Shown one piece after another: positions 27,995-37,226 of a DNA stretch of 43,946 nt (position 1 is the stretch's first letter; the number at the start of each line of letters is the position of its first letter). The position numbers and the translations under genes were made by a program. The stretch comes from a virus (Duplodnaviria; Heunggongvirae; Uroviricota; Caudoviricetes), in IMG/VR virus record IMGVR_UViG_3300045988_019467. The stretch is one strand, 5' to 3'. The notes beneath the pieces are model-generated. The model had not been told where the DNA came from. It worked only from the letters and a program-made list of their open reading frames with translations, and did not search any database.

Positions 27995-28132
27995 AAATTT
28001 TCACTCCATCACCCACAGATAAATTGCGATGAACATGCCCAATACAGCAACCATCATGCTGTATTGACTCTCGTGACAGTAGACACCGGCGGCGAATCCC
28101 GCCAGTACCGCAATAATCAGTTTACTTGGCAT
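27995..28132 (-). CDS. small hydrophobic protein (putative, very short)
   Basis: 45-aa ORF with two hydrophobic segments between the DNA polymerase and VRR-NUC genes; too short for confident calling. Confidence 0.2.
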
Positions 28133-30323
28133 AGCGTTTTAACTCCTGACCTTCTGCTACAAGAGGGAACCCTTCAGCCCACTCAGGCAACGCGCACATT
28201 AATTTTTCCAGTTCAGCCACCGTGTACTCGGGGGTGTCCGGAGTTTCACATACCAGTTCATCGTGTACCGAAAGCACGATGGGGTACCCGCCGCCCTCAA
28301 CATTAATCATCGCATATGCGAGTAAATCACGGCACAGCGCCTGAACAATGTTTTCGCAGGCTTTGCCGCCGTGGGTGTACAGGGTAGTCCATTGACGGGT
28401 TAACTGGTTTTCGCCCTGATACTTGATTCGCACATTCGTATTCACCCGTCCATCTTCATCTGTTTCCTTTGTCACACTAACGCCGATTCCCGGATACGAG
28501 AGGACGCGACCTGACGGCAACTCCATGCATAACCACCAACCAGGAACCTTCCTGCCGGATGAATCAAATTCTACCGTACGCCATATGCGGATAGCCCTTC
28601 CCCCCTTCCTGCGCAAGTGTGCTCCCGCCCAAAATTCACGACCAGGATTACGAACAGCGGCTAAAATTCCGTCTTTAAGGTCGCGCCAGAACGCTACTGT
28701 TTCCGGGTGTGACTCGCGCCACATACGCTTGATTGCGTCGCAGGTACGCCACACCTTCTTGTCCAGAATATACGACGGTCGGTCGTCCTTTTCACCAGGA
28801 TGTGGTGGTCGCTTTGCTTCCTGGATACGCGCCCATTCATAACCACGTGCAGTAGCCGCCCATATATGATCAGGGAAAGTCCCGTCCATTGTTTTTGCCA
28901 TCTCAATAAGGTCAAGACCTAAATTTTTAGCGAACGTAACGAACGCTCCGACGCCCCCCTCGTAGCCGAGGCCAAGCTCGCAGGCCTTGCCTATCTGTCT
29001 GATTTCCTTGAAGTTTTTCTTAATATCATCTGGGTCCATGCCGAACATCTTACCCGCGGTTACACAGTAAATATCAAGGCCGGCGCGGAACGTATCGAGC
29101 GCGGTTTCTTCACCGGCTAGCCACGCTAAACCGCGACCTTCGACGTTAGAATAATCGGCAACAACAAACTTATGTCCTGCTTCCGGTATGATGCAGCTAC
29201 GCACTGTCGACGCCGTTAGCTTGGCTACGTCGAAACGGCGATGAGCACGACCCTTAAGTAACGCAGAAATGCCTTTATCCAGTTCATCATCGTGATAGTA
29301 ACCGCGCGCCAGGTTCTGTGGCTGGAAGCCTTTACCTGCCCATCGCAGGGTACGTTTTGCTCCGCCGTACTGTAAGCAACCGCGGCGTCGGTCGTCCGAA
29401 GAGCGACCCAACAGCAGCGGGTTATATTTCGTTGATGCGGTGGACGCAGCCCCGAGGCGCATTTCGATAATCGCGCGGGCGTCGTCCGGTAAATCGTCGT
29501 TGGCAAGCAGGTCGTTAAGCGTTGACTTCTGCGCGTTGTGGATTCGGTGTGCTGGTGCGAGTTCCCGCAAAATAGGCAGAAAGTCCTTTCCAGTAAGCGA
29601 GCCGCCGTATTTGCGCTGTGCTTCTTCCTGTAACTGCGCTTTGTGTTTCTCCACGGCTTCAATCGCGGCTTCCGCCAGTGCGACGTCAACCTTAAAGCCT
29701 CGGTCGTTGATTAACTGGTCCAGTTCCAGCACACGGTCCTCAAACTCGGAGTTACCCCAACGCGGCAGCTTATGGAAGACTTCACGCATTGCGGTGATGT
29801 CGCTAACGGCGTACTTGATGAACAGCGCCCACTCGTCTGGGTGCGTTTCTGCGGTGTAACGGCGGATTTTGTAGTTCTTCGGTGTTGGTTTAGAGAAACG
29901 CTGAATCAGCGCCTTACCGCGTTTGTCTTTTGCATTGTCCGCGGATACGCCAAGCACTTCGCACAAGGCATCAAGAGAACCCGGCAGCGCGTGACGAAAC
30001 GCCCAAATCATCGTATCAATGGTGTTGCTCACCGGAATATCAAAGTCCCAACAGTGCTTCATGATGAGCCTGTCGAACATTGATCCGTTGTGCCACACCA
30101 TCTTGATACGGCTGTTCGGCTTAACCAGGCGGCGTAGAGCGCGGTGCAAATCCCCCGGCATGTCGCTGCCATCGGTGCAATCCCACACCTGCACAGGCTC
30201 GTCATCGAAAGCATAGGTACAGATTAGCACTTCGGTAGTTGGGTGTTCTGCGTAAGCATAGGAACCGACTTTCTTTAAATCGGCTTCGGAGAATGTTTCA
30301 AAGTCCAGGTATAAGTAGCTCAT
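28122..30323 (-). CDS. DNA polymerase, family A (Pol I-like) with N-terminal 3'-5' exonuclease domain
   Basis: N-terminal exonuclease motif LYLDFETFS (DxE); C-terminal polymerase motif C (VLSVHDELVCE); 733 aa. Confidence 0.8.
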   Translation of the reverse strand: MSYLYLDFETFSEADLKKVGSYAYAEHPTTEVLICTYAFDDEPVQVWDCTDGSDMPGDLHRALRRLVKPNSRIKMVWHNGSMFDRLIMKHCWDFDIPVSNTIDTMIWAFRHALPGSLDALCEVLGVSADNAKDKRGKALIQRFSKPTPKNYKIRRYTAETHPDEWALFIKYAVSDITAMREVFHKLPRWGNSEFEDRVLELDQLINDRGFKVDVALAEAAIEAVEKHKAQLQEEAQRKYGGSLTGKDFLPILRELAPAHRIHNAQKSTLNDLLANDDLPDDARAIIEMRLGAASTASTKYNPLLLGRSSDDRRRGCLQYGGAKRTLRWAGKGFQPQNLARGYYHDDELDKGISALLKGRAHRRFDVAKLTASTVRSCIIPEAGHKFVVADYSNVEGRGLAWLAGEETALDTFRAGLDIYCVTAGKMFGMDPDDIKKNFKEIRQIGKACELGLGYEGGVGAFVTFAKNLGLDLIEMAKTMDGTFPDHIWAATARGYEWARIQEAKRPPHPGEKDDRPSYILDKKVWRTCDAIKRMWRESHPETVAFWRDLKDGILAAVRNPGREFWAGAHLRRKGGRAIRIWRTVEFDSSGRKVPGWWLCMELPSGRVLSYPGIGVSVTKETDEDGRVNTNVRIKYQGENQLTRQWTTLYTHGGKACENIVQALCRDLLAYAMINVEGGGYPIVLSVHDELVCETPDTPEYTVAELEKLMCALPEWAEGFPLVAEGQELKRYAK

Positions 30324-30534: not shown

Positions 30535-31161
30535 TTAACGGCGACGACGTTCACGGCGTGGTGCTCCATCTTCTTCGTCGTCTTCCAGGTCGTCGACACT
30601 TGCGGCGACTTTAGAGCCGCCGAACGCTTTACCTTCGCCGACGTATTTAATGGCCAGCAGGTTAACGCCGAGAACTTTGTATTTCTGGCTAAACCAGATT
30701 TCAACGCTTACGTTGGCAACACAGCCACTGTAAACCTGTTCGCCTTCAATCTGTTCTCCGTCTACATTAAAGTCCTGCTCTACCTGAGTCTCACCTTTTT
30801 TAGAGGTTACAATCAGTGGCTGTTTCTGTGCCTTCGCTTTGAAGTAGAATCCTTCCGGGAAATCTTCAAACGGATTGTCGCGCTCAGCAATATCTTTAAT
30901 CGCACATTTATCCATGTGCTTACCCTCGCCGTAGTTGGATTTCATCCATTTCTCGGCAGCGGCTGCGCCTAACGCTTCTTCAACTACGGCGTAAACAGTG
31001 TCGTAGAGCGCATCGATTTGAGCATGGTCAGACGGCAGGATAATAGTCGCGCTGTACTGGCCTTTAGTGATTGAGCCATCATCGTTTTCACGGTCTTTTT
31101 CGCGTTCGAATACGTTAACCCATGCAGTGTTTACTTTACGCAGATTCAGTTTCAGTCCCAT
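30535..31161 (-). CDS. single-stranded DNA-binding protein, T7 gp2.5-like (putative)
   Basis: Size, position upstream of the DNA polymerase, and an FGG-plus-acidic stretch (AFGGSKVAASVDDLEDDEEDG) recalled as similar to the gp2.5 C-terminal region; basic extreme C-terminus is atypical. Confidence 0.4.
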   Translation of the reverse strand: MGLKLNLRKVNTAWVNVFEREKDRENDDGSITKGQYSATIILPSDHAQIDALYDTVYAVVEEALGAAAAEKWMKSNYGEGKHMDKCAIKDIAERDNPFEDFPEGFYFKAKAQKQPLIVTSKKGETQVEQDFNVDGEQIEGEQVYSGCVANVSVEIWFSQKYKVLGVNLLAIKYVGEGKAFGGSKVAASVDDLEDDEEDGAPRRERRRR

Positions 31162-31213: not shown

Positions 31214-31242
31214 ACTATAATAGCTAACTATTCAGGTGTCAA
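31214..31242 (-). promoter_or_regulatory. class-2 promoter, copy 8 (minus strand: TTGACACC-N12-TATTATAGT)
   Basis: Minus-strand TTGACA (plus 31237..31242) and TATAGT (plus 31214..31219); about 50 nt upstream of the SSB-like ATG at 31161. Confidence 0.5.
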
Positions 31243-31397
31243 CGCTTAATTTTAGAAACTTTCTCACACCAAAGAAAATAGCGCTCGATTGACTCACTAT
31301 CGCGAAGTTTACGGTCTACCCACGCGATAGACGAAGTGAACGCGCCTATTACTATAAAAGGAGAAACAAGCGCCCAATACTTAATTTTACGAATCAT
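31239..31397 (-). CDS. small membrane protein (one TM helix)
   Basis: 52-aa ORF with hydrophobic core (YWALVSPFIVIGAFTSSIAWV); ATG overlaps the stop of the upstream gene (ATGA). Confidence 0.35.
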   Translation of the reverse strand: MIRKIKYWALVSPFIVIGAFTSSIAWVDRKLRDSESIERYFLWCEKVSKIKR

Positions 31398-32644
31398 TCT
31401 AAATCCTCCTCTGTTACCTGATTCCACTCAGGCCGTTTGTCGTCTGCCGCTGCAACACATGGTGCCCCCGGCTTGCGTGTGATAAATGGCTCAAGCGCAG
31501 CCATCTCGTCCGCCGACAGAACTTTGGCGGCTTCTGTTGGTGACATCAAAACCTCTTTTTTGAGGATATCGCCGTGTGAAACTTCAATCGCGTCCGCGTC
31601 TTTCCACGCACGATTACCAGGGCGACCCTCAACCAGCTTGTACCCCGGCACTTTCTTGCCGGAATGCAACGCGGCAGACATCGCTTTCTCAACCTTGTCG
31701 ATGTGCTGGCGCAACAACGGCAGCTTCTCATACTCAGTTACGAGTTGCTCCGGTGTCAGTTCCGGCGCAAAGTCGTCTTCAAGTTCTTCCGCCAGCACCG
31801 CGTTAACGGTTTTTGTACGCGCAGCACACTGTTCAGAGAACCGGCACCACTGACAACCACCGACAGACGGCCTGAAGTCAGACGCTTTCAGATTCTTCTT
31901 GCCACGGAAATACGCATCAAGAGCCAACAGTGCACGTTTCTGCGCAAACTTAGCGAACAGTTCCAGACCTTCAACCGAGATGTCCCACTCCGACGCACCG
32001 CCAGCATACGGCTGGAAGATGACCAGACGAACCACGGTGATGTTATAACGCCTCTTTAGTCGGCGATAAACACCGAGAGCGTAAAGCATAAGCTGCTTGT
32101 TTTCTTTCGCTTCGACACGATGCCGCCCGGTTTTCAGGTCGCCGACGGTAAGCATGTGCTCGTCAGTGTTAGCCAATTCCTGAACGGCAACAAGGTCAGC
32201 GGTTCCGAACGTCTCAACGCCTTCGTAACCGGGATGCAATACCTCAGTAAGATTGACACGCATTTCCAGCTTGGCGTAAGTCGCTACATCGATAATCGCT
32301 TTGCAGTAGTCGGTATACTTGCGTACCTGCTCAATCATATCAGCCGTAATCAGTACCGCGCCTTTCATCGGACTGATTAGCGCCTTAATCTGGCCTTTAC
32401 CCTCATCCAGCACATAAGCACCGACTTCACGCTCTAACGGCAACGCAGTACCTTTGATGTACTGATTTAAATGGACCTCGGCTATGGTGTGACACGCGGT
32501 CCCTGTAACGGCAGCTTTACCAGACGTGTTAGGAATATCTTTTTCACAGGCCAGTGATGCACTGCACGTCAGCCACTTCTTAGCACCTGACGGCGATAAT
32601 AAGGCGTGCACATCGTTATTGCCACCGCGTTCTTTTAGAATCAT
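31394..32644 (-). CDS. PD-(D/E)xK exonuclease, Cas4-like (DUF2800-type) with C-terminal Cys cluster
   Basis: N-terminal HALLSPSGAKKWLTCSASL signature; C-terminal Cys cluster (GGCQWCRFSEQC) as in Cas4/AddB-type Fe-S nucleases. Confidence 0.6.
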   Translation of the reverse strand: MILKERGGNNDVHALLSPSGAKKWLTCSASLACEKDIPNTSGKAAVTGTACHTIAEVHLNQYIKGTALPLEREVGAYVLDEGKGQIKALISPMKGAVLITADMIEQVRKYTDYCKAIIDVATYAKLEMRVNLTEVLHPGYEGVETFGTADLVAVQELANTDEHMLTVGDLKTGRHRVEAKENKQLMLYALGVYRRLKRRYNITVVRLVIFQPYAGGASEWDISVEGLELFAKFAQKRALLALDAYFRGKKNLKASDFRPSVGGCQWCRFSEQCAARTKTVNAVLAEELEDDFAPELTPEQLVTEYEKLPLLRQHIDKVEKAMSAALHSGKKVPGYKLVEGRPGNRAWKDADAIEVSHGDILKKEVLMSPTEAAKVLSADEMAALEPFITRKPGAPCVAAADDKRPEWNQVTEEDLE

Positions 32645-33153
32645 TTCTCAGCCCCGTTAACTGTAAACCCATATTTAATCTCGGCTTGCCTACGAGCCTT
32701 AGCCGCGTTCTCTAACTTATCGTAGGCCCCTAAATAAATCGGCCTGCCGTCTACATAAATTCTCGCGACCCACTTACCGTAGCGTTTATGAAACCCAACA
32801 CCTTTAACCCCTGAAGTATTGTCCGTCCGTATGTTGGTGCCGTGTGCGATACTACCTCGGCGCATTTTTATAAGATTTTCTATTCTGTTATCAGTTCTAT
32901 CTTTATTTTTATGACGAATTACTTCCCCCGGCGCTATCGGCCCGTTAAACATCTCCCAAACTACGTGGTGGATAAGTTTAGTAGTCCCGTTAAAACGTAG
33001 TATTTTAAATTCACTCCCGTCGTTGTCCTCCCTCGTACTGCCAGCTTCTTGCCCTATTTTTACAGATTTTGACGGACTTATTTTCCAAAATAATTTACCG
33101 GTATCAGGGTCATAGTCAAAAACTTCATGCCAATTCATACTCTGCTCTCCCAC
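32641..33153 (-). CDS. HNH homing endonuclease with AP2-type DNA-binding domain
   Basis: HNH-like motif (IRHKNKDRTDNRIENL) and AP2-like segment (GVKGVGFHKRYGKWVARIYVDGRPIYLGAY). Confidence 0.65.
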   Translation of the reverse strand: MGEQSMNWHEVFDYDPDTGKLFWKISPSKSVKIGQEAGSTREDNDGSEFKILRFNGTTKLIHHVVWEMFNGPIAPGEVIRHKNKDRTDNRIENLIKMRRGSIAHGTNIRTDNTSGVKGVGFHKRYGKWVARIYVDGRPIYLGAYDKLENAAKARRQAEIKYGFTVNGAEK

Positions 33154-33407
33154 TGGTCAATTAAATGTCGTGTCTGGTGGTGGCAATGCATCGCCCATCC
33201 ATACATCGACTCGAAGACATAAAAGTCAGGTTTGGCGAAAGTCGTGCGCTTAATCTGCGACACGTGACGGCCTATATCTTTAGGCCGTGGTACTTTGCCT
33301 AAGTACGCCATCTCTTCCATCTGGTGCGCACCGGACGGCGCGCGCAACAGCCATAACGCCTCTGTGTTATCCCGCCGGTCAACGGCGCGGTAGAGTTGGT
33401 AAATCAT
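33135..33407 (-). CDS. hypothetical protein
   Basis: Start set at internal ATG 33407 (RBS GAGGG) to avoid overlap with the upstream gene; His/Cys-containing C-terminus. Confidence 0.35.
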   Translation of the reverse strand: MIYQLYRAVDRRDNTEALWLLRAPSGAHQMEEMAYLGKVPRPKDIGRHVSQIKRTTFAKPDFYVFESMYGWAMHCHHQTRHLIDQWESRV

Positions 33408-33419
33408 AATTCTGACCCT

Positions 33420-33443
33420 CAGTTTGGTGCCCTCAATAGCGAG
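33420..33443 (-). other. perfect 9-bp stem hairpin (GGTGCCCTC-N6-GAGGGCACC) in intergenic spacer
   Basis: Perfect inverted repeat between two co-oriented minus-strand genes; no U-tract. Confidence 0.35.
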
Positions 33444-33462
33444 GGCACCATAAGTTAAGTAG

Positions 33463-33990
33463 TTATTCTTCTTCGAAATACTTGTTCTTGATTGCCGTGA
33501 GGCGTTCCAGATATTCAGCCAGGTCTTCGTCTTTAATCGCGGCAATCTTCATTTTCTTACCGGTGAACTCTTCCAGTATTTCATCGGAATCGTCGCACGC
33601 GGCATCGCTCGGACCTTCGTTAATCGCATCGTCGATAGCCTGAATCTGGTCACGCAGAGACTGGTAATCGACTTCTTCTTCCGGCTCCGGTGTTGGTTCC
33701 TCTACAGGTTTAGGGGCTGGTTTTGATTTGCCAGGCTTGCGTTTCGGCTTCTCATCTTCTGCCGGTTTAGTGTCAACGACGTCTTCACCTTCAACCGGGA
33801 TTTCTTTCGCCTTCTCGACTTCTTCAAGTGCTTTAGCCAGTTCTTTTTTAACTGTCTCTACCCCCGTTACCGCGACGTCAACAGTCAATTCACCTACAGA
33901 TTTATTAGTCGGTTGTTTCACACTGTTCGCAGCAATCAGTTCATGCGCAACTACGAAACGTTCCAGTAATACTAAGAATTTCTCTAACAT
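33463..33990 (-). CDS. hypothetical acidic, Pro/Glu/Lys-rich protein
   Basis: 175-aa ORF with low-complexity PKPx/EEE region; stop and start coupled to neighbours. Confidence 0.45.
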   Translation of the reverse strand: MLEKFLVLLERFVVAHELIAANSVKQPTNKSVGELTVDVAVTGVETVKKELAKALEEVEKAKEIPVEGEDVVDTKPAEDEKPKRKPGKSKPAPKPVEEPTPEPEEEVDYQSLRDQIQAIDDAINEGPSDAACDDSDEILEEFTGKKMKIAAIKDEDLAEYLERLTAIKNKYFEEE

Positions 33991-34166
33991 TATTTGTTCT
34001 CCTGTTCGGCGATATTGTTAAGTTCTTTAAGAATGTCTTTCTGCATGTTTTCGGGTAAGAAACGGAATGCCTGAGTAATCATACCTTCAACATCCCCACG
34101 TCCTTCTAGGATGACGTTGGGAAACCACACTTTCCAGTTAGCATCATAATCTTTACGTTTAGCCAT
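33990..34166 (-). CDS. small hypothetical protein (first gene of leftward operon)
   Basis: 58-aa ORF with RBS GAGAGGAAAG downstream of class-2 promoter copy 6; stop overlaps the next ATG (TAATG). Confidence 0.4.
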   Translation of the reverse strand: MAKRKDYDANWKVWFPNVILEGRGDVEGMITQAFRFLPENMQKDILKELNNIAEQENK

Positions 34167-34187
34167 TTTGTTTCTTTCCTCTCGTTT

Positions 34188-34228
34188 GGTATGTGCTAAC
34201 TATAATAGCGAACTATTCATGGTGTCAA
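34188..34228 (-). promoter_or_regulatory. class-2 promoter, copy 6 (minus strand: TTGACACC-N13-TATTATAGT)
   Basis: Minus-strand TTGACA (plus 34223..34228) and TATAGT (plus 34199..34204); divergent from the Cro-like gene. Confidence 0.5.
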
Positions 34229-34292
34229 TGGGCTTTTCTAAAATAATTAATATGGTACTATTCACATATCAACTGACTAAGGAGTAATTGAC

Positions 34293-34508
34293 ATGCAACC
34301 ATCTGAACTAGGCATCCGTGTAGAACAACGCCGTAAAGAACTCGGTATCTCCCAGCGCCGTCTGGCTGTCCTGACCGGCGTTTCTCAGGGCGCGATTAAC
34401 CAACTGGCACTTGGGGTAACTCAGGACGTCCGCCCGGCGACGCTGTTTAAACTGGCGGAAGTGCTGGAAGTAGACGCTAAGTGGCTGGCGTTCGGTGAAG
34501 GGGCTTAA
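34293..34508 (+). CDS. XRE-family HTH transcriptional regulator (Cro/CI-like)
   Basis: Classic HTH_XRE pattern (ELGISQRRLAVLTGVSQGAINQLALG); RBS AAGGAG; transcribed opposite to the surrounding replication operon. Confidence 0.7.
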   Translation: MQPSELGIRVEQRRKELGISQRRLAVLTGVSQGAINQLALGVTQDVRPATLFKLAEVLEVDAKWLAFGEGA

Positions 34509-34524
34509 TGCCCCTTTCTTTTTA
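34498..34524 (+). terminator. intrinsic terminator of the Cro-like gene
   Basis: AAGGGGC-TTAAT-GCCCCTT stem overlapping the stop codon, followed by TCTTTTTA. Confidence 0.5.
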
Positions 34525-34525
34525 C

Positions 34526-36808
34526 CTACTCCAAATCTTCCTCTGTCACCACCAGCATTTCATTCGGTTCGTATATTGTCTTCGGCCTTAATCTATCCCC
34601 TATTCTTTCAGGTATACGATATGTTCTCGGTACTACTTCGCCGTTTGCATCGCAGCCAAGCATTAGTTCACCATCTTTCAACATTTTATCAAGATGGGTG
34701 TTAGTCACAGAGAAGTCACCAGAACGGGCCACTATCTGCTGCTGAGTAAAACCGCGTCCGGTGTCATCAGACTGTTGCAGGTCTTCCAGCGCCGAAAGTA
34801 TTGACTCCTTCCTTCCTTCATCCCTGCCGCGTTTAACCTCTTCCTTTACTTTTTCTTTACCTTTATCAGATAGCCCTTCTTCCCGCTCTTTCTCCTCGTC
34901 AGTTTTGAACGGCTCGAAGCCCCACGGCATCAACACAAGCGCCTTGTGTGGCTCTGGCAGGTCGAGGTTAACGATTGTGCCGTATTCCTCGGTGCTACCC
35001 AGGAACTCAACTGCGCGGTATTCTTTCGGCGGTGGCGCTTCACGGAACTGTACCGACTCCAGAACCATGCCAACCGTCTTCTGTTGAGGCCCGTGCTTAA
35101 ATTTAGAGTGGTATACGTTTATCTGACGGTCTGTAGCGCGTTCGATTGTCAGTTCCACGTCGACACCGGCATACAATGCCCCACTGCCACGGGCTTTCTT
35201 TCCGCCCTTCGGTGTATGGTGGACGACGCCCACCGCGGCTTTAGTTGCGTCACGTACTTCTTTCAGGATGGCGATAACTTTACCCATGCCGATTGCCGTT
35301 GATGAACTGTTCTCGTCGAACTTATCAATCGTCAGTGCCAGCGTCTGGTTGAGGGTGTCGAACGCCACCATGCCGATTGGCTCGCCCTCCGCAGTTTCGC
35401 GCATTAACTTAATCAGGTTTTTCAGTTTTCCGACTTCACCCATGTCGATGACATGTACATAATCTTTACCTTCCTCGCCATATTTAGCCGCGAGTGCGTC
35501 GATACGTGTGCGCGTAGCTGCGCCACCCTCACCGTCGATATAGAAATGGTGGCAACGCTGGGTGTCTGCCCCTGCAAACCGATATCCGGCGGCGCTGAGG
35601 TACATCATCCCCAGCGTATAGAACGACTTGTACGTACCAGACTCACCGACAATATCCCATATGCAATCTGACGGCATATACCCTTCGACGACGAAATCAG
35701 CCTTTACCGGTGCCGGTAACTCATCCTCCTCTGAGTCCTCATCGTCTTCCAGGTCGTCGAGGCTGCATGAAACAGATTCACGCGCACCCCAGCCGATAGC
35801 CTCTGCGACTTCACTGAACGGCAGGCCAGTCGCATCGCACGCATATTTCCACACCTCTTTCGGCGACATGCCTTCGGTTGCCGTAATGTCGGTGTTGTGA
35901 ATCATGGTTACGTTCGGCGCTTCATATCCTTCACGCGGGAAACACAGCAGGAAGTCGTCAGGACGCGGCGTCGGGTCGCTGTAGTTTTCTGCATGCTCTG
36001 GTGTGGCTGGCATCTTAAGGCCGCGCGGCGTCATGATGCCGCCGTACTCGAACGCCAGTGCCTCGAACGCATCAGTAAACGCGGTGCGCAGTTCTTCCGG
36101 TATCTGGTAATCCGATGCGCCGCTAACGTCAACGGCGGGGATGCCTTCCAGCAACTCGTCCGGGTCAATCAGGTCGTTGCGGCGCGACCAGATAACCTGC
36201 GAGCCGACCGGCGGCAGGTACATAGGCTGGGACAGAGTGAACCCGCTGCGGTCAGCACCCATGCCCTTAAAGAAATGCTCCAGCAACCCGTGGCGAACAC
36301 GGATGACGTCACCACCCTCAACCGGGCGGGCCAGTGGCATGACGACGCGAAAGCGCGGTGATTCATCGGTATGGGATGCCGTGGTGTAAATGCACATCGC
36401 CAGGCGGCTGCGCTTAACCAGGCGCACAGCTTCCTGGTACTCTTCCGGTGTTGCACTGTCGAAGTCCAGATACGCCAGCGACGATTTGCTTACAGACGCG
36501 TCACAGCGGTAAAAGAAGCCTTTACGCGCTTGCTTAAAGTCGCCTGTTTCCGGGTCTTTTACGGTGCTGCGTGTCGAGTCGCACGCGGCTGTGATATAGC
36601 CGGGCGCTGTCTTCGGGTTAATTCCATCACGAACAGCATCGAGCGGCTGGATTAACTCTTTCAGGTCGTCCAGTGTTGCCGTGTGTGTGGTTCTGACGTT
36701 TATATCCTTTTTCTCTGCCCGCGCGTTGCGACGGGACCAAGAGTAGGATAAAATTACATCGGACATGTTGTATATTCCTTCAGCAAGTAATTTGGCCTCG
36801 GCGTTCAC
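34526..36808 (-). CDS. DNA primase/helicase (RecA-like ATPase domain)
   Basis: 760-aa protein with Walker A-like GESGTYKS in the C-terminal half; calling the N-terminal half a primase domain is by analogy with P4-type replicases, not a recognised motif. Confidence 0.55.
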   Translation of the reverse strand: MNAEAKLLAEGIYNMSDVILSYSWSRRNARAEKKDINVRTTHTATLDDLKELIQPLDAVRDGINPKTAPGYITAACDSTRSTVKDPETGDFKQARKGFFYRCDASVSKSSLAYLDFDSATPEEYQEAVRLVKRSRLAMCIYTTASHTDESPRFRVVMPLARPVEGGDVIRVRHGLLEHFFKGMGADRSGFTLSQPMYLPPVGSQVIWSRRNDLIDPDELLEGIPAVDVSGASDYQIPEELRTAFTDAFEALAFEYGGIMTPRGLKMPATPEHAENYSDPTPRPDDFLLCFPREGYEAPNVTMIHNTDITATEGMSPKEVWKYACDATGLPFSEVAEAIGWGARESVSCSLDDLEDDEDSEEDELPAPVKADFVVEGYMPSDCIWDIVGESGTYKSFYTLGMMYLSAAGYRFAGADTQRCHHFYIDGEGGAATRTRIDALAAKYGEEGKDYVHVIDMGEVGKLKNLIKLMRETAEGEPIGMVAFDTLNQTLALTIDKFDENSSSTAIGMGKVIAILKEVRDATKAAVGVVHHTPKGGKKARGSGALYAGVDVELTIERATDRQINVYHSKFKHGPQQKTVGMVLESVQFREAPPPKEYRAVEFLGSTEEYGTIVNLDLPEPHKALVLMPWGFEPFKTDEEKEREEGLSDKGKEKVKEEVKRGRDEGRKESILSALEDLQQSDDTGRGFTQQQIVARSGDFSVTNTHLDKMLKDGELMLGCDANGEVVPRTYRIPERIGDRLRPKTIYEPNEMLVVTEEDLE

Positions 36809-36825: not shown

Positions 36826-37059
36826 TTATTCCAGGTCTTCTAAAGTAGCGGTCATTCCGCGAACTTCGGCAACGGCACTATATTTCCCGCCAACATTTTT
36901 CACGACACCGGATTTAACCAGTACACGTAACGACCCTTCAATAATGGCTGAACTATAGTACTTAAAATAACTACGGCGCAAGTCCATAACGCTGCACGAC
37001 CTTTTTTTACGGGTTAATGAAACGACCGCCGTAAATACGCGTGACTGGAACTCTGTCAT
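36826..37059 (-). CDS. hypothetical protein (C-terminal ...TLEDLE)
   Basis: 77-aa ORF; ATG overlaps the stop of the upstream gene (ATGA). Confidence 0.4.
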   Translation of the reverse strand: MTEFQSRVFTAVVSLTRKKRSCSVMDLRRSYFKYYSSAIIEGSLRVLVKSGVVKNVGGKYSAVAEVRGMTATLEDLE

Positions 37060-37226
37060 TTCACATTCTCCTTAATCCAGGCTTCCACTTTCTCCGGGTC
37101 AAACGTACCGGGCTGACGACGACCCATAATACGGATACAGCAATCAGGGAACTTCCCACTCTTTAACCAGTTATTCAGCGTGCGACGAGTAACCCCGATA
37201 CGCTCAGCTACTTCATTCTGCGTCAT
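37056..37226 (-). CDS. small HTH DNA-binding protein (AlpA/excisionase-like fold, putative regulator)
   Basis: 56-aa ORF with HTH-like segment (QNEVAERIGVTRRTLNNWLKSGKFP). Confidence 0.4.
   Translation of the reverse strand: MTQNEVAERIGVTRRTLNNWLKSGKFPDCCIRIMGRRQPGTFDPEKVEAWIKENVK

Follow-up and report, generated by a model that had tools for sequence, protein, structure and literature searches.

Why do three otherwise unrelated proteins of one phage replication module end in the same acidic peptide? The question is raised by the IMG/VR virus record IMGVR_UViG_3300045988_019467 (Caudoviricetes), a DNA stretch of 43,946 nucleotides that was analysed over its full length and is hereafter called the window. 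It is the genome, complete or nearly so, of a Kagunavirus-like siphophage (Guernseyvirinae), whose replication module is 86-91% identical to that of many Escherichia phages. A DUF2800 exonuclease, an AAA_25 primase-helicase and a winged-helix protein of 77 residues (p77) carry the peptide T-x-E-D-L-E at their C-termini, and a similar motif opens the tail of the protein that binds single-stranded DNA (ssDNA), the SSB. A preliminary description of this DNA had proposed a common docking motif. Conservation of the tails and their lineage-by-lineage covariation with the SSB motif, both read from sequence, supported this proposal: the motif would most likely be a docking peptide that lets all its carriers dock on one common partner.

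An acidic peptide on unrelated proteins

Translation returned the three C-termini exactly as the preliminary description had given them, including that of p77, which it named but whose gene lies just outside the interval it delimited. The set of motif peptides comprises NQVTEEDLE (exonuclease), LVVTEEDLE (primase-helicase), TATLEDLE (p77) and ASVDDLEDDEED. Among 426 six-frame open reading frames (ORFs) of at least 30 residues, these three proteins are the only ones ending in [DE]L[DE], and the chance expectation for protein triples with a common C-terminal 4-mer among 72 ORFs was 1.5e-5. Together with the rarity of the pattern in other ORFs of related phages (see below), this ruled out a chance origin.

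Codon choice differs among the three tails (GAG/GAA, TTA/TTG/CTG), and so do the sequences that follow them, namely a small ORF with an ATGA overlap (exonuclease), a terminator hairpin (primase-helicase) and a 17-nt spacer (p77). Since codons and downstream contexts differ, the repeat exists at the peptide level and not at the DNA level, and the codon differences between copies indicate that selection acts on the peptide.

The internal DDLE stretch of the SSB, already pointed out in the preliminary description, proved to be the same motif. Its place where the tail begins is constant in DUF2815 SSBs, and the exonuclease tail changes with it from lineage to lineage. The primase-helicase carries a fifth copy, absent from that description, in an acidic linker stretch (SLDDLEDDEDSEEDE, with SLDDLEDDED) just before AAA_25, the match to which begins at residue 370. 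Kaguna- and Jersey-type orthologues conserve this copy as SLDDLED, TLEDLED or DEEDLDDEE. The DDLEDD core is encoded by one and the same 19-nt sequence, TCGACGACCTGGAAGACGA, in the SSB motif (~30573-30591) and in the internal copy of the primase-helicase (~35738-35756), which could result from codon bias or from gene conversion between the two copies.

The motif thus sits on four proteins with unrelated domains, a DUF2800 nuclease, an AAA_25 primase-helicase, a DUF2815 SSB and the winged-helix p77. The exonuclease matched PF10926 and PF12705 (232.6 bits), has four invariant cysteines (C27, C264, C267 and C273, alignment A2) and is found in more than 1500 phage records. The Pfam DUF2800 model stops at residue 405 of 416, so that the exonuclease tail lies outside the domain, and D414 and L415 are invariant (alignment A1). 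The SSB, which has an acidic tail, was assigned to the DUF2815/Enc34 type by its matches to PF10991 (57.9 bits, cut-off 26), phrog_112 (E 8e-42) and the structure 4JG2 (E 2e-4). For p77, AlphaFold2 gave a predicted local distance difference test score (pLDDT) of 84 and a fold made of helices 3-18, 24-30 and 37-50 and a hairpin at 53-62. Residues 67-77, which form the tail, had a pLDDT <50 and are hence predicted to be disordered. A Foldseek search of p77 against the PDB returned generic winged-helix matches only (best E 4e-3) and no functional assignment. A duplication of the primase-helicase C-terminal region as the origin of p77 was rejected, as BLASTP showed no similarity between the two.

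These features are those of a short linear motif (SLiM): the peptide is short, its D and L are invariant between variable flanks, the p77 tail is predicted to be disordered, and there are five unrelated carriers, counting a 62-residue protein of related phages. The motif may be written as [TS]-acid-acid-D-L followed by 0-3 residues, here T-x-E-D-L-E, on tails that would be disordered.

Conservation and covariation with the SSB motif

We have scanned the pattern [DE].DL.{0,3}$ over the ORFs of 80 IMG/VR loci, four whole genomes (a Jerseyvirus, Pantoea phage AH01, Salmonella phage SenTO17 and Dhillonvirus jat) and the window. The pattern matched 78 of 84 exonuclease and 76 of 78 primase-helicase ORFs, and 3 of the 11722 other ORFs. 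One of these three is the fifth carrier, the 62-aa protein encoded between the SSB and polymerase (PolA) genes (loci L056, L088 and L089), which ends in TATDEDLE. Persistence of the tail in close homologues was the check set beforehand, and the tail was kept: DLE is the C-terminus of 116 of 120 primase-helicase homologues (60-88% identity), and nearly all exonuclease and primase-helicase orthologues of the 80 loci retain the ending. The primase-helicase and exonuclease tails are, respectively, TTEEDLG and VTEDDLEA in the Jerseyvirus, VEPDDLEN and VSDDDLSN in AH01, VEDDLEN and VTDDDLAN in SenTO17, and ATDDDLKD and ATDEDLSNE in jat. The p77 orthologues in the loci all end in [TS][LP]EDLE (23/23), and of a further 32 homologues from databases the 12 that were aligned end in EDLE but for one (EDLA), the sole exception among full-length p77 homologues.

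The Leu anchor is at position -2 in the window and at -2 to -5 in relatives. At positions -3 (D) and -2 (L) the orthologues differ by synonymous changes only (GAT/GAC and TTA/TTG/CTG/CTA/CTT, respectively). Cluster representatives of the primase-helicase at 29-39% identity still end in [DE]xDL plus 0-3 residues, and in the locus of one distant primase-helicase (L156) the exonuclease bears the same tail pattern too. No [DE]xDL ending was seen in remote AAA_25 proteins. The polymerase is without the motif in all four whole genomes, and its C-terminus (RYAK/RYRK) is kept in 79 orthologues.

Many primase-helicase homologues (P0045, P0053, P0054, P0097 and others) are 94-97% identical over only 52-57% of the query, the others being ~61% identical overall. 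This indicates that part of the gene has been swapped mosaically between Kagunavirus lineages with retention of the tail.

In all DUF2815 SSBs examined (22 lineages), the oligonucleotide/oligosaccharide-binding (OB) core ends in DG[DE]x[FL]GG and is followed by the motif at nearly constant spacing. The exonuclease tail copies the tail-start motif of the phage's own SSB in 22 lineages with the DUF2800/gp2.5-like SSB/PolA module. The SSB and exonuclease pairs read SVDDLED/VTEEDLE in the window, ANDDDLSDD/VSDDDLSN in AH01, SDEDLD/TDEDLS in jat, SVDDFDDIS/NDFEDVS in APSE-type phages, SAAEDDFDEL/SAEDDFDKL in Staphylococcus phage 3A, SDAWDEDED/GAWDDEDD in the Chi-like SPN19, SADDFDSY/SADDFDDV in L106, SAVQAFGAP/SAKDAFQEE in L093 and TAADVFGVI/PEDVFKKI in L132. 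The mean similarity of exonuclease and SSB tails was 23.1 for the same phage vs. 17.7 across phages (21 exonuclease clusters at <60% identity, permutation p about 5e-5). The anchor residue covaries as well, being Leu in the lineage of the window, Phe in most lineages and Trp or Tyr in Chi/Enc34-like phages.

Primases and helicases often share the SSB motif as well. The Javan32 primase ends in DDDYDFLD and its SSB in DDDDDFLN, and the L084 primase-helicase in VDDDAF and its SSB in NEDELF. In Casjensviridae, the primase, ORF3, exonuclease, SSB, SNF2 helicase and small terminase subunit end in (D/E)EV, DDV or DDEE(D), an acidic ending that the polymerase, the VRR-NUC protein and the large terminase subunit do not have. 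The small terminase subunits read DEVDDDEV in SPN19 (L086, 10354-10923) and EADDDEV in Enc34 (L152, 10318-10893), which hints at a link of packaging to the replication and recombination hub through this tail.

Beyond the motif, the SSB tails of the window's clade are blocky polyampholytes, represented in the window by DDEEDGAPRRERRRR (30535-30567, minus strand). In Dhillonviruses they consist of repeats such as DDDDEDDKPRKSKKSKRR and reach up to ~100 residues (L004, 16298-17080; L088, 11615-12373). SSB tails of the IMG/VR phages L093-L124 (e.g., L095, 3016-3645) keep a proximal x-A-F, common to the exonuclease tail EAFKEEN, and are then Gln/Pro-rich, ending in INPITG[ML]P[MYF], a tip that is possibly directed at the host. 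Primases of the PriCT_2/DUF5906 type (~845 aa) end in DGFDDIPF (L130, 6122-8650), DNDFLDPPF (L122, 2354-4909) or DKDFDQAPF (L126, 247-2790), closely resembling the C-terminal peptide of the E. coli SSB; the SSBs of L130 and L122 end in EEEFL and ADFV, respectively.

The acidic phrog_3127 protein, encoded upstream of the exonuclease, has an aromatic-acidic C-terminus of its own, KYFEEE in the window and KYYELED, KYYDLED or KYYEIEE in relatives (L001, 18733-19269; L002, 41630-42151; L004, 13480-13923), which may represent a second class of tail. The proteins in this position in Chi and Enc34 end in GEEDDV and GEEEEV, respectively. Homology of phrog_3127 to Enc34 ORF3 was rejected, since the Dhillonvirus counterpart has no BLASTP similarity to ORF3.

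The genes and peptides of the window are listed in Table 1; the replication and recombination genes are all on the minus strand.

Table 1. Positions of the motif copies and of the genes around them in the window
Feature	Coordinates	Strand	Remarks
Family A DNA polymerase (PolA)	28122-30323	-	733 aa; ends in ELKRYAK, no acidic tail; candidate receptor
DUF2815/Enc34-type (T7 gp2.5-like) SSB	30535-31161	-	Pfam Enc34_ssDNA-bd, phrog_112
SSB tail-proximal motif SVDDLEDDEED	30568-30600	-	Residues 188-198; then basic end GAPRRERRRR
52-aa membrane-like ORF	31239-31397	-	
DUF2800 PD-(D/E)XK (Cas4-like) exonuclease	31394-32644	-	Pfam match
Exonuclease C-terminal tail VTEEDLE	31397-31417	-	Translation
HNH+AP2 homing endonuclease	32641-33153	-	
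Acidic 175-aa protein	33463-33990	-	phrog_3127
XRE-type gene	34293-34508	+	Convergent
Primase-helicase	34526-36808	-	AAA_25, phrog_3228
Primase-helicase C-terminal tail VTEEDLE	34529-34549	-	Translation
Primase-helicase internal copy	35720-35764	-	Residues 349-363; acidic stretch just before AAA_25
p77	36826-37059	-	77 aa, winged-helix, phrog_5169
p77 C-terminal tail ATLEDLE	36829-36849	-	Translation
HTH_17 protein	37056-37226	-	

The true start of the primase-helicase is probably Met15. The 52-aa ORF contains the hydrophobic stretch MIRKIKYWALVSPFIVIGAFTSSIAW and its ATG overlaps the exonuclease stop codon; directly upstream of it, the exonuclease tail codons GAGGAGGA form a possible Shine-Dalgarno sequence. 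The ORF had no PHROG match and five homologous ORFs in the loci. The HNH_3 and AP2 gene is directly upstream of the exonuclease gene, overlapping its start by 4 nt, and its product has a very variable C-terminus among relatives, as expected of a mobile insert. A GC-rich hairpin, GAAGGGGCTTAATGCCCCTTT, lies at 34497-34517 between the XRE and primase-helicase genes, overlapping the coding end of the former, and is probably a bidirectional terminator. The polymerase of Jerseyvirus BPS11Q3 (L001, 21507-24605) is annotated with 1032 residues vs. 733 in the window and has the same C-terminus, which suggests an insertion (intein or homing element) in its gene.

Candidate acceptors of the tails

A short invariant core in disordered tails, placed on unrelated folds and covarying with the SSB motif, argues for a docking peptide with a common receptor. 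This receptor is probably phage-encoded, since phages of the same host bear different signatures: Chi/Enc34-like and Jersey/Kaguna phages share hosts (Salmonella, enterobacteria), the former having W/Y..DDEV and the latter T..DL.

We tentatively favor a docking SLiM that copies the SSB's own motif, with the concave ssDNA-binding face of the SSB as primary acceptor and a hand-off of SSB to DNA. T-x-E-D-L-E would be the Guernseyvirinae/Dhillonvirus version of an acid-acid-hydrophobic-anchor motif that opens every DUF2815 SSB tail. By copying it, the exonuclease, the primase-helicase (with two copies) and p77 would compete for, or take turns on, the site of the SSB tail, namely the concave ssDNA-binding beta-sheet of a neighboring SSB molecule. 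In Enc34 ORF6, 4JG2, 4KLK and T7 gp2.5, the C-terminal tail lies in the concave sheet of a neighboring molecule (PMC5686142). As the last 11 of the 200 residues of Enc34 ORF6 are invisible in the crystal, the traceable end inserted in the neighbor would be SDAYD, an anchor segment that recurs in the tail of the Enc34 exonuclease (GAYDDE); the C-terminus of 4JG2 reads AADDFTTIEDD. The exonuclease and helicase tails could each keep one SSB free of DNA and pass it to the single strand that these enzymes expose, the release being proposed because ssDNA would displace the acidic tail. This SSB hub would hold p77 as well. As T7 suggests, the tails probably have a second acceptor in a basic patch of the polymerase. 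We infer both sites, and regard the SSB groove as the likely primary acceptor and the polymerase as the likely second one.

Several points weigh against this scheme. The residue count behind the Enc34 anchor segment is our own deduction and is not stated in the Enc34 ORF6 paper, and the tail contacts in the crystals may be packing artefacts. The AlphaFold2 model of the window SSB (pLDDT 37, from a shallow alignment of 10 close sequences) was unusable for the groove. For the SSB and helicase tails of T7, polymerase and helicase are the documented partners. The basic end of the window SSB (RRERRRR) is unusual for an SSB tail. The Leu, Phe and Trp/Tyr anchor types largely follow clades, so that independent covariation events are few. 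Finally, the hand-off step is speculative, as a tail lodged in the groove would be in competition with DNA.

A possible, though less probable, arrangement makes the polymerase the main hub, as in T7, with the tails of the primase-helicase, SSB, exonuclease and p77 binding basic patches of PolA. This would tether the polymerase to the helicase (processivity, exchange) and couple resection to recombination-dependent synthesis. The acidic tails of T7 gp4 and gp2.5, which resemble each other, bind a basic patch at the front of gp5 (K587, K589, R590 and R591), and structure 6P7E contains a DTDF peptide mimicking the gp4 tail. Essentially all modules examined contain PolA, which is tail-less throughout, and among these modules none with shared tails and without a polymerase was found; in four loci (L106, L122, L126 and L130) the PolA position is occupied by an unannotated protein of ~600 aa that matches no Pfam model. 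The missing tail is nevertheless weak evidence for PolA as receptor, because the C-terminus of a family A polymerase such as T7 gp5 lies at the active site. The window PolA is also only remotely related to family A polymerases of solved structure (best E 1e-8 over 64 residues), with no T7-type thioredoxin-binding insert or basic patch mapped on it, and the tails that Chi/Enc34 phages have on their small terminase subunit and SNF2 helicase are not easily explained by a polymerase hub.

In a broader and rather unlikely version of the SSB-centered scheme, phages with the DUF2800/gp2.5-like SSB/PolA module would have a lineage-specific, private "tail code" that plugs its carriers into SSB. Up to six proteins would bear it, namely the SSB, the exonuclease, the primase or primase-helicase, the SNF2 helicase, small DNA-binding proteins and the small terminase subunit. 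The blocky acidic/basic SSB tail would then nucleate a phage-specific assembly for replication, recombination and packaging, possibly a condensate, with T..DL as the code of Guernseyvirinae and Dhillonvirus, W/Y..DDEV that of Casjensviridae and ..DDF.. elsewhere. If this were true, the code would co-evolve as a unit, insulating the machinery from co-infecting phages and host proteins.

We consider it unlikely that the tails act in cis, each mimicking DNA and bending back onto its own protein's DNA-binding surface to tune affinity or specificity, with no common partner. Every carrier is indeed a DNA-binding protein, the T7 gp2.5 tail occupies its own groove, and removal of the Enc34 ORF6 tail abolishes the discrimination between ssDNA and double-stranded DNA. 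Pure electrostatics, however, needs neither an invariant D-L nor a lineage-specific signature across unrelated folds, and would not lead one to expect an exonuclease tail that follows the SSB motif from lineage to lineage.

Docking on a protein of the host (its sliding clamp, SSB or DnaB, or a degron-recognizing protease or chaperone) appears more doubtful still. Host-like tips do occur in the wider family, where the L122, L126 and L130 primases end like the E. coli SSB (GFDDIPF, DFLDPPF or DFDQAPF) and gut-phage SSBs end in INPITGMP[MYF]. The beta-clamp-binding motif is QL[SD]LF, and VTEEDLE and ATLEDLE have neither its Gln nor its hydrophobic pair. T-x-E-D-L-E is equally unlike the bacterial SSB C-terminal peptide (SSB-Ct, DDDIPF) and ClpX tags; the window SSB itself ends in GAPRRERRRR, and SSB-Ct-like ends were found only on primases of other phages. 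The different signatures of same-host phages, and a motif that tracks the phage's own SSB, also speak against a host receptor.

A by-product of DNA-level signals (ribosome-binding sites, translational coupling or recombination sites) or of chance in acidic low-complexity sequence, to which the possible Shine-Dalgarno sequence in the exonuclease tail codons and the 19-nt identity might point, was ruled out by the codon differences, the distinct downstream contexts, the purely synonymous variation of D and L and the low chance expectation and rarity given above.

Relation to known acidic tails and significance

The system would be a variant of the T7-type acidic tails, distinguished by its Leu anchor, a larger set of client proteins and a code that differs between lineages. 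The analogy to T7 drawn in the preliminary description found support: the window SSB is of the gp2.5-like OB-fold type, and acidic disordered tails with a hydrophobic anchor are common to the SSB (gp2.5, EADEDGDF; window, SVDDLEDDEED) and the primase-helicase (gp4, WSNDTDF; window, VVTEEDLE). In T7, ssDNA and the gp2.5 tail compete for the gp2.5 groove, and the tail also anchors to the basic patch at the polymerase front. The essential anchor of the T7 class is a C-terminal Phe, whereas the window has Leu at -2, with 0-3 residues after the anchor in relatives and Phe or Trp anchors in other lineages. Besides, the window SSB has its motif at the tail start and then a basic end, and the motif is also found on a PD-(D/E)XK exonuclease and the winged-helix p77, unlike T7, whose gp6 exonuclease is without such a tail. 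The window primase-helicase is of the AAA_25 type, unlike gp4, and tail binding is here a prediction.

The companion analogy to the E. coli SSB-Ct is loose. As in bacteria, genome-maintenance proteins would be organized by disordered tails whose acidic peptide has a hydrophobic anchor, but the polarity is reversed, because here the clients carry the peptide: the clients and the SSB would present it to a shared receptor, whereas the bacterial peptide is confined to the SSB and its clients each have a pocket. The peptide sequences (DDDIPF in bacteria) also differ.

The closest known SSBs are those of the Enc34 ORF6/DUF2815 type (Enc34 ORF6, 4JG2 and 4KLK), with the same core-end signature followed by an acidic motif, D-D-L-E in the window vs. 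D-A-Y-D..DEV in Enc34 and A-D-D-F in 4JG2. The published work on Enc34 ORF6, 4JG2 and 4KLK discusses the SSB only, leaving unmentioned the same tail on the exonuclease, primase, helicase and small terminase subunit, and our literature search found, in the papers that it covered, no earlier description of shared tails in these phages. The DUF2800/gp2.5-like/polA module has been described as a recombination module (PMC8093625). Like lambda Exo-Beta and RecE-RecT, it would couple a resecting nuclease specifically to its cognate ssDNA-annealing or -binding protein; in lambda the coupling is made by a folded C-terminal domain of Beta, whereas here it is proposed to be made by a 7-residue nuclease tail mimicking the SSB motif.

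Tractable experimental models exist, because the Dhillonviruses SECphi4 and SECphi18 bear the same D-L code and come with escape and toxicity data. SECphi4 and SECphi18 phages escaping several defence systems have mutations in the SSB, polymerase and primase-helicase, and expression of the SECphi4 SSB and polymerase activates the toxicity of defence systems. The SSB and polymerase changes shown lie in the cores, so that these escape mutations are uninformative on the tails.

Acidic tails that organize the replisome are textbook knowledge for T7, T4 and E. coli, but they have been described for the SSB and helicase only. Here, the same logic with a different peptide, whose Leu anchor is not always terminal, reaches a recombination exonuclease and a small winged-helix protein, and in Chi/Enc34-like phages the tails extend to a helicase and the small terminase subunit; the module is very widespread. 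If docking were confirmed, the motif would provide a sequence rule for recognizing replisome or recombination components among proteins of unknown function (p77, the 62-aa protein and phrog_3127 being cases in point), and a handle, in the form of 7-residue deletions or tail swaps, to separate replisome assembly from catalysis. It would also offer a possible explanation of the exonuclease-annealase specificity in gp2.5-type recombination systems.

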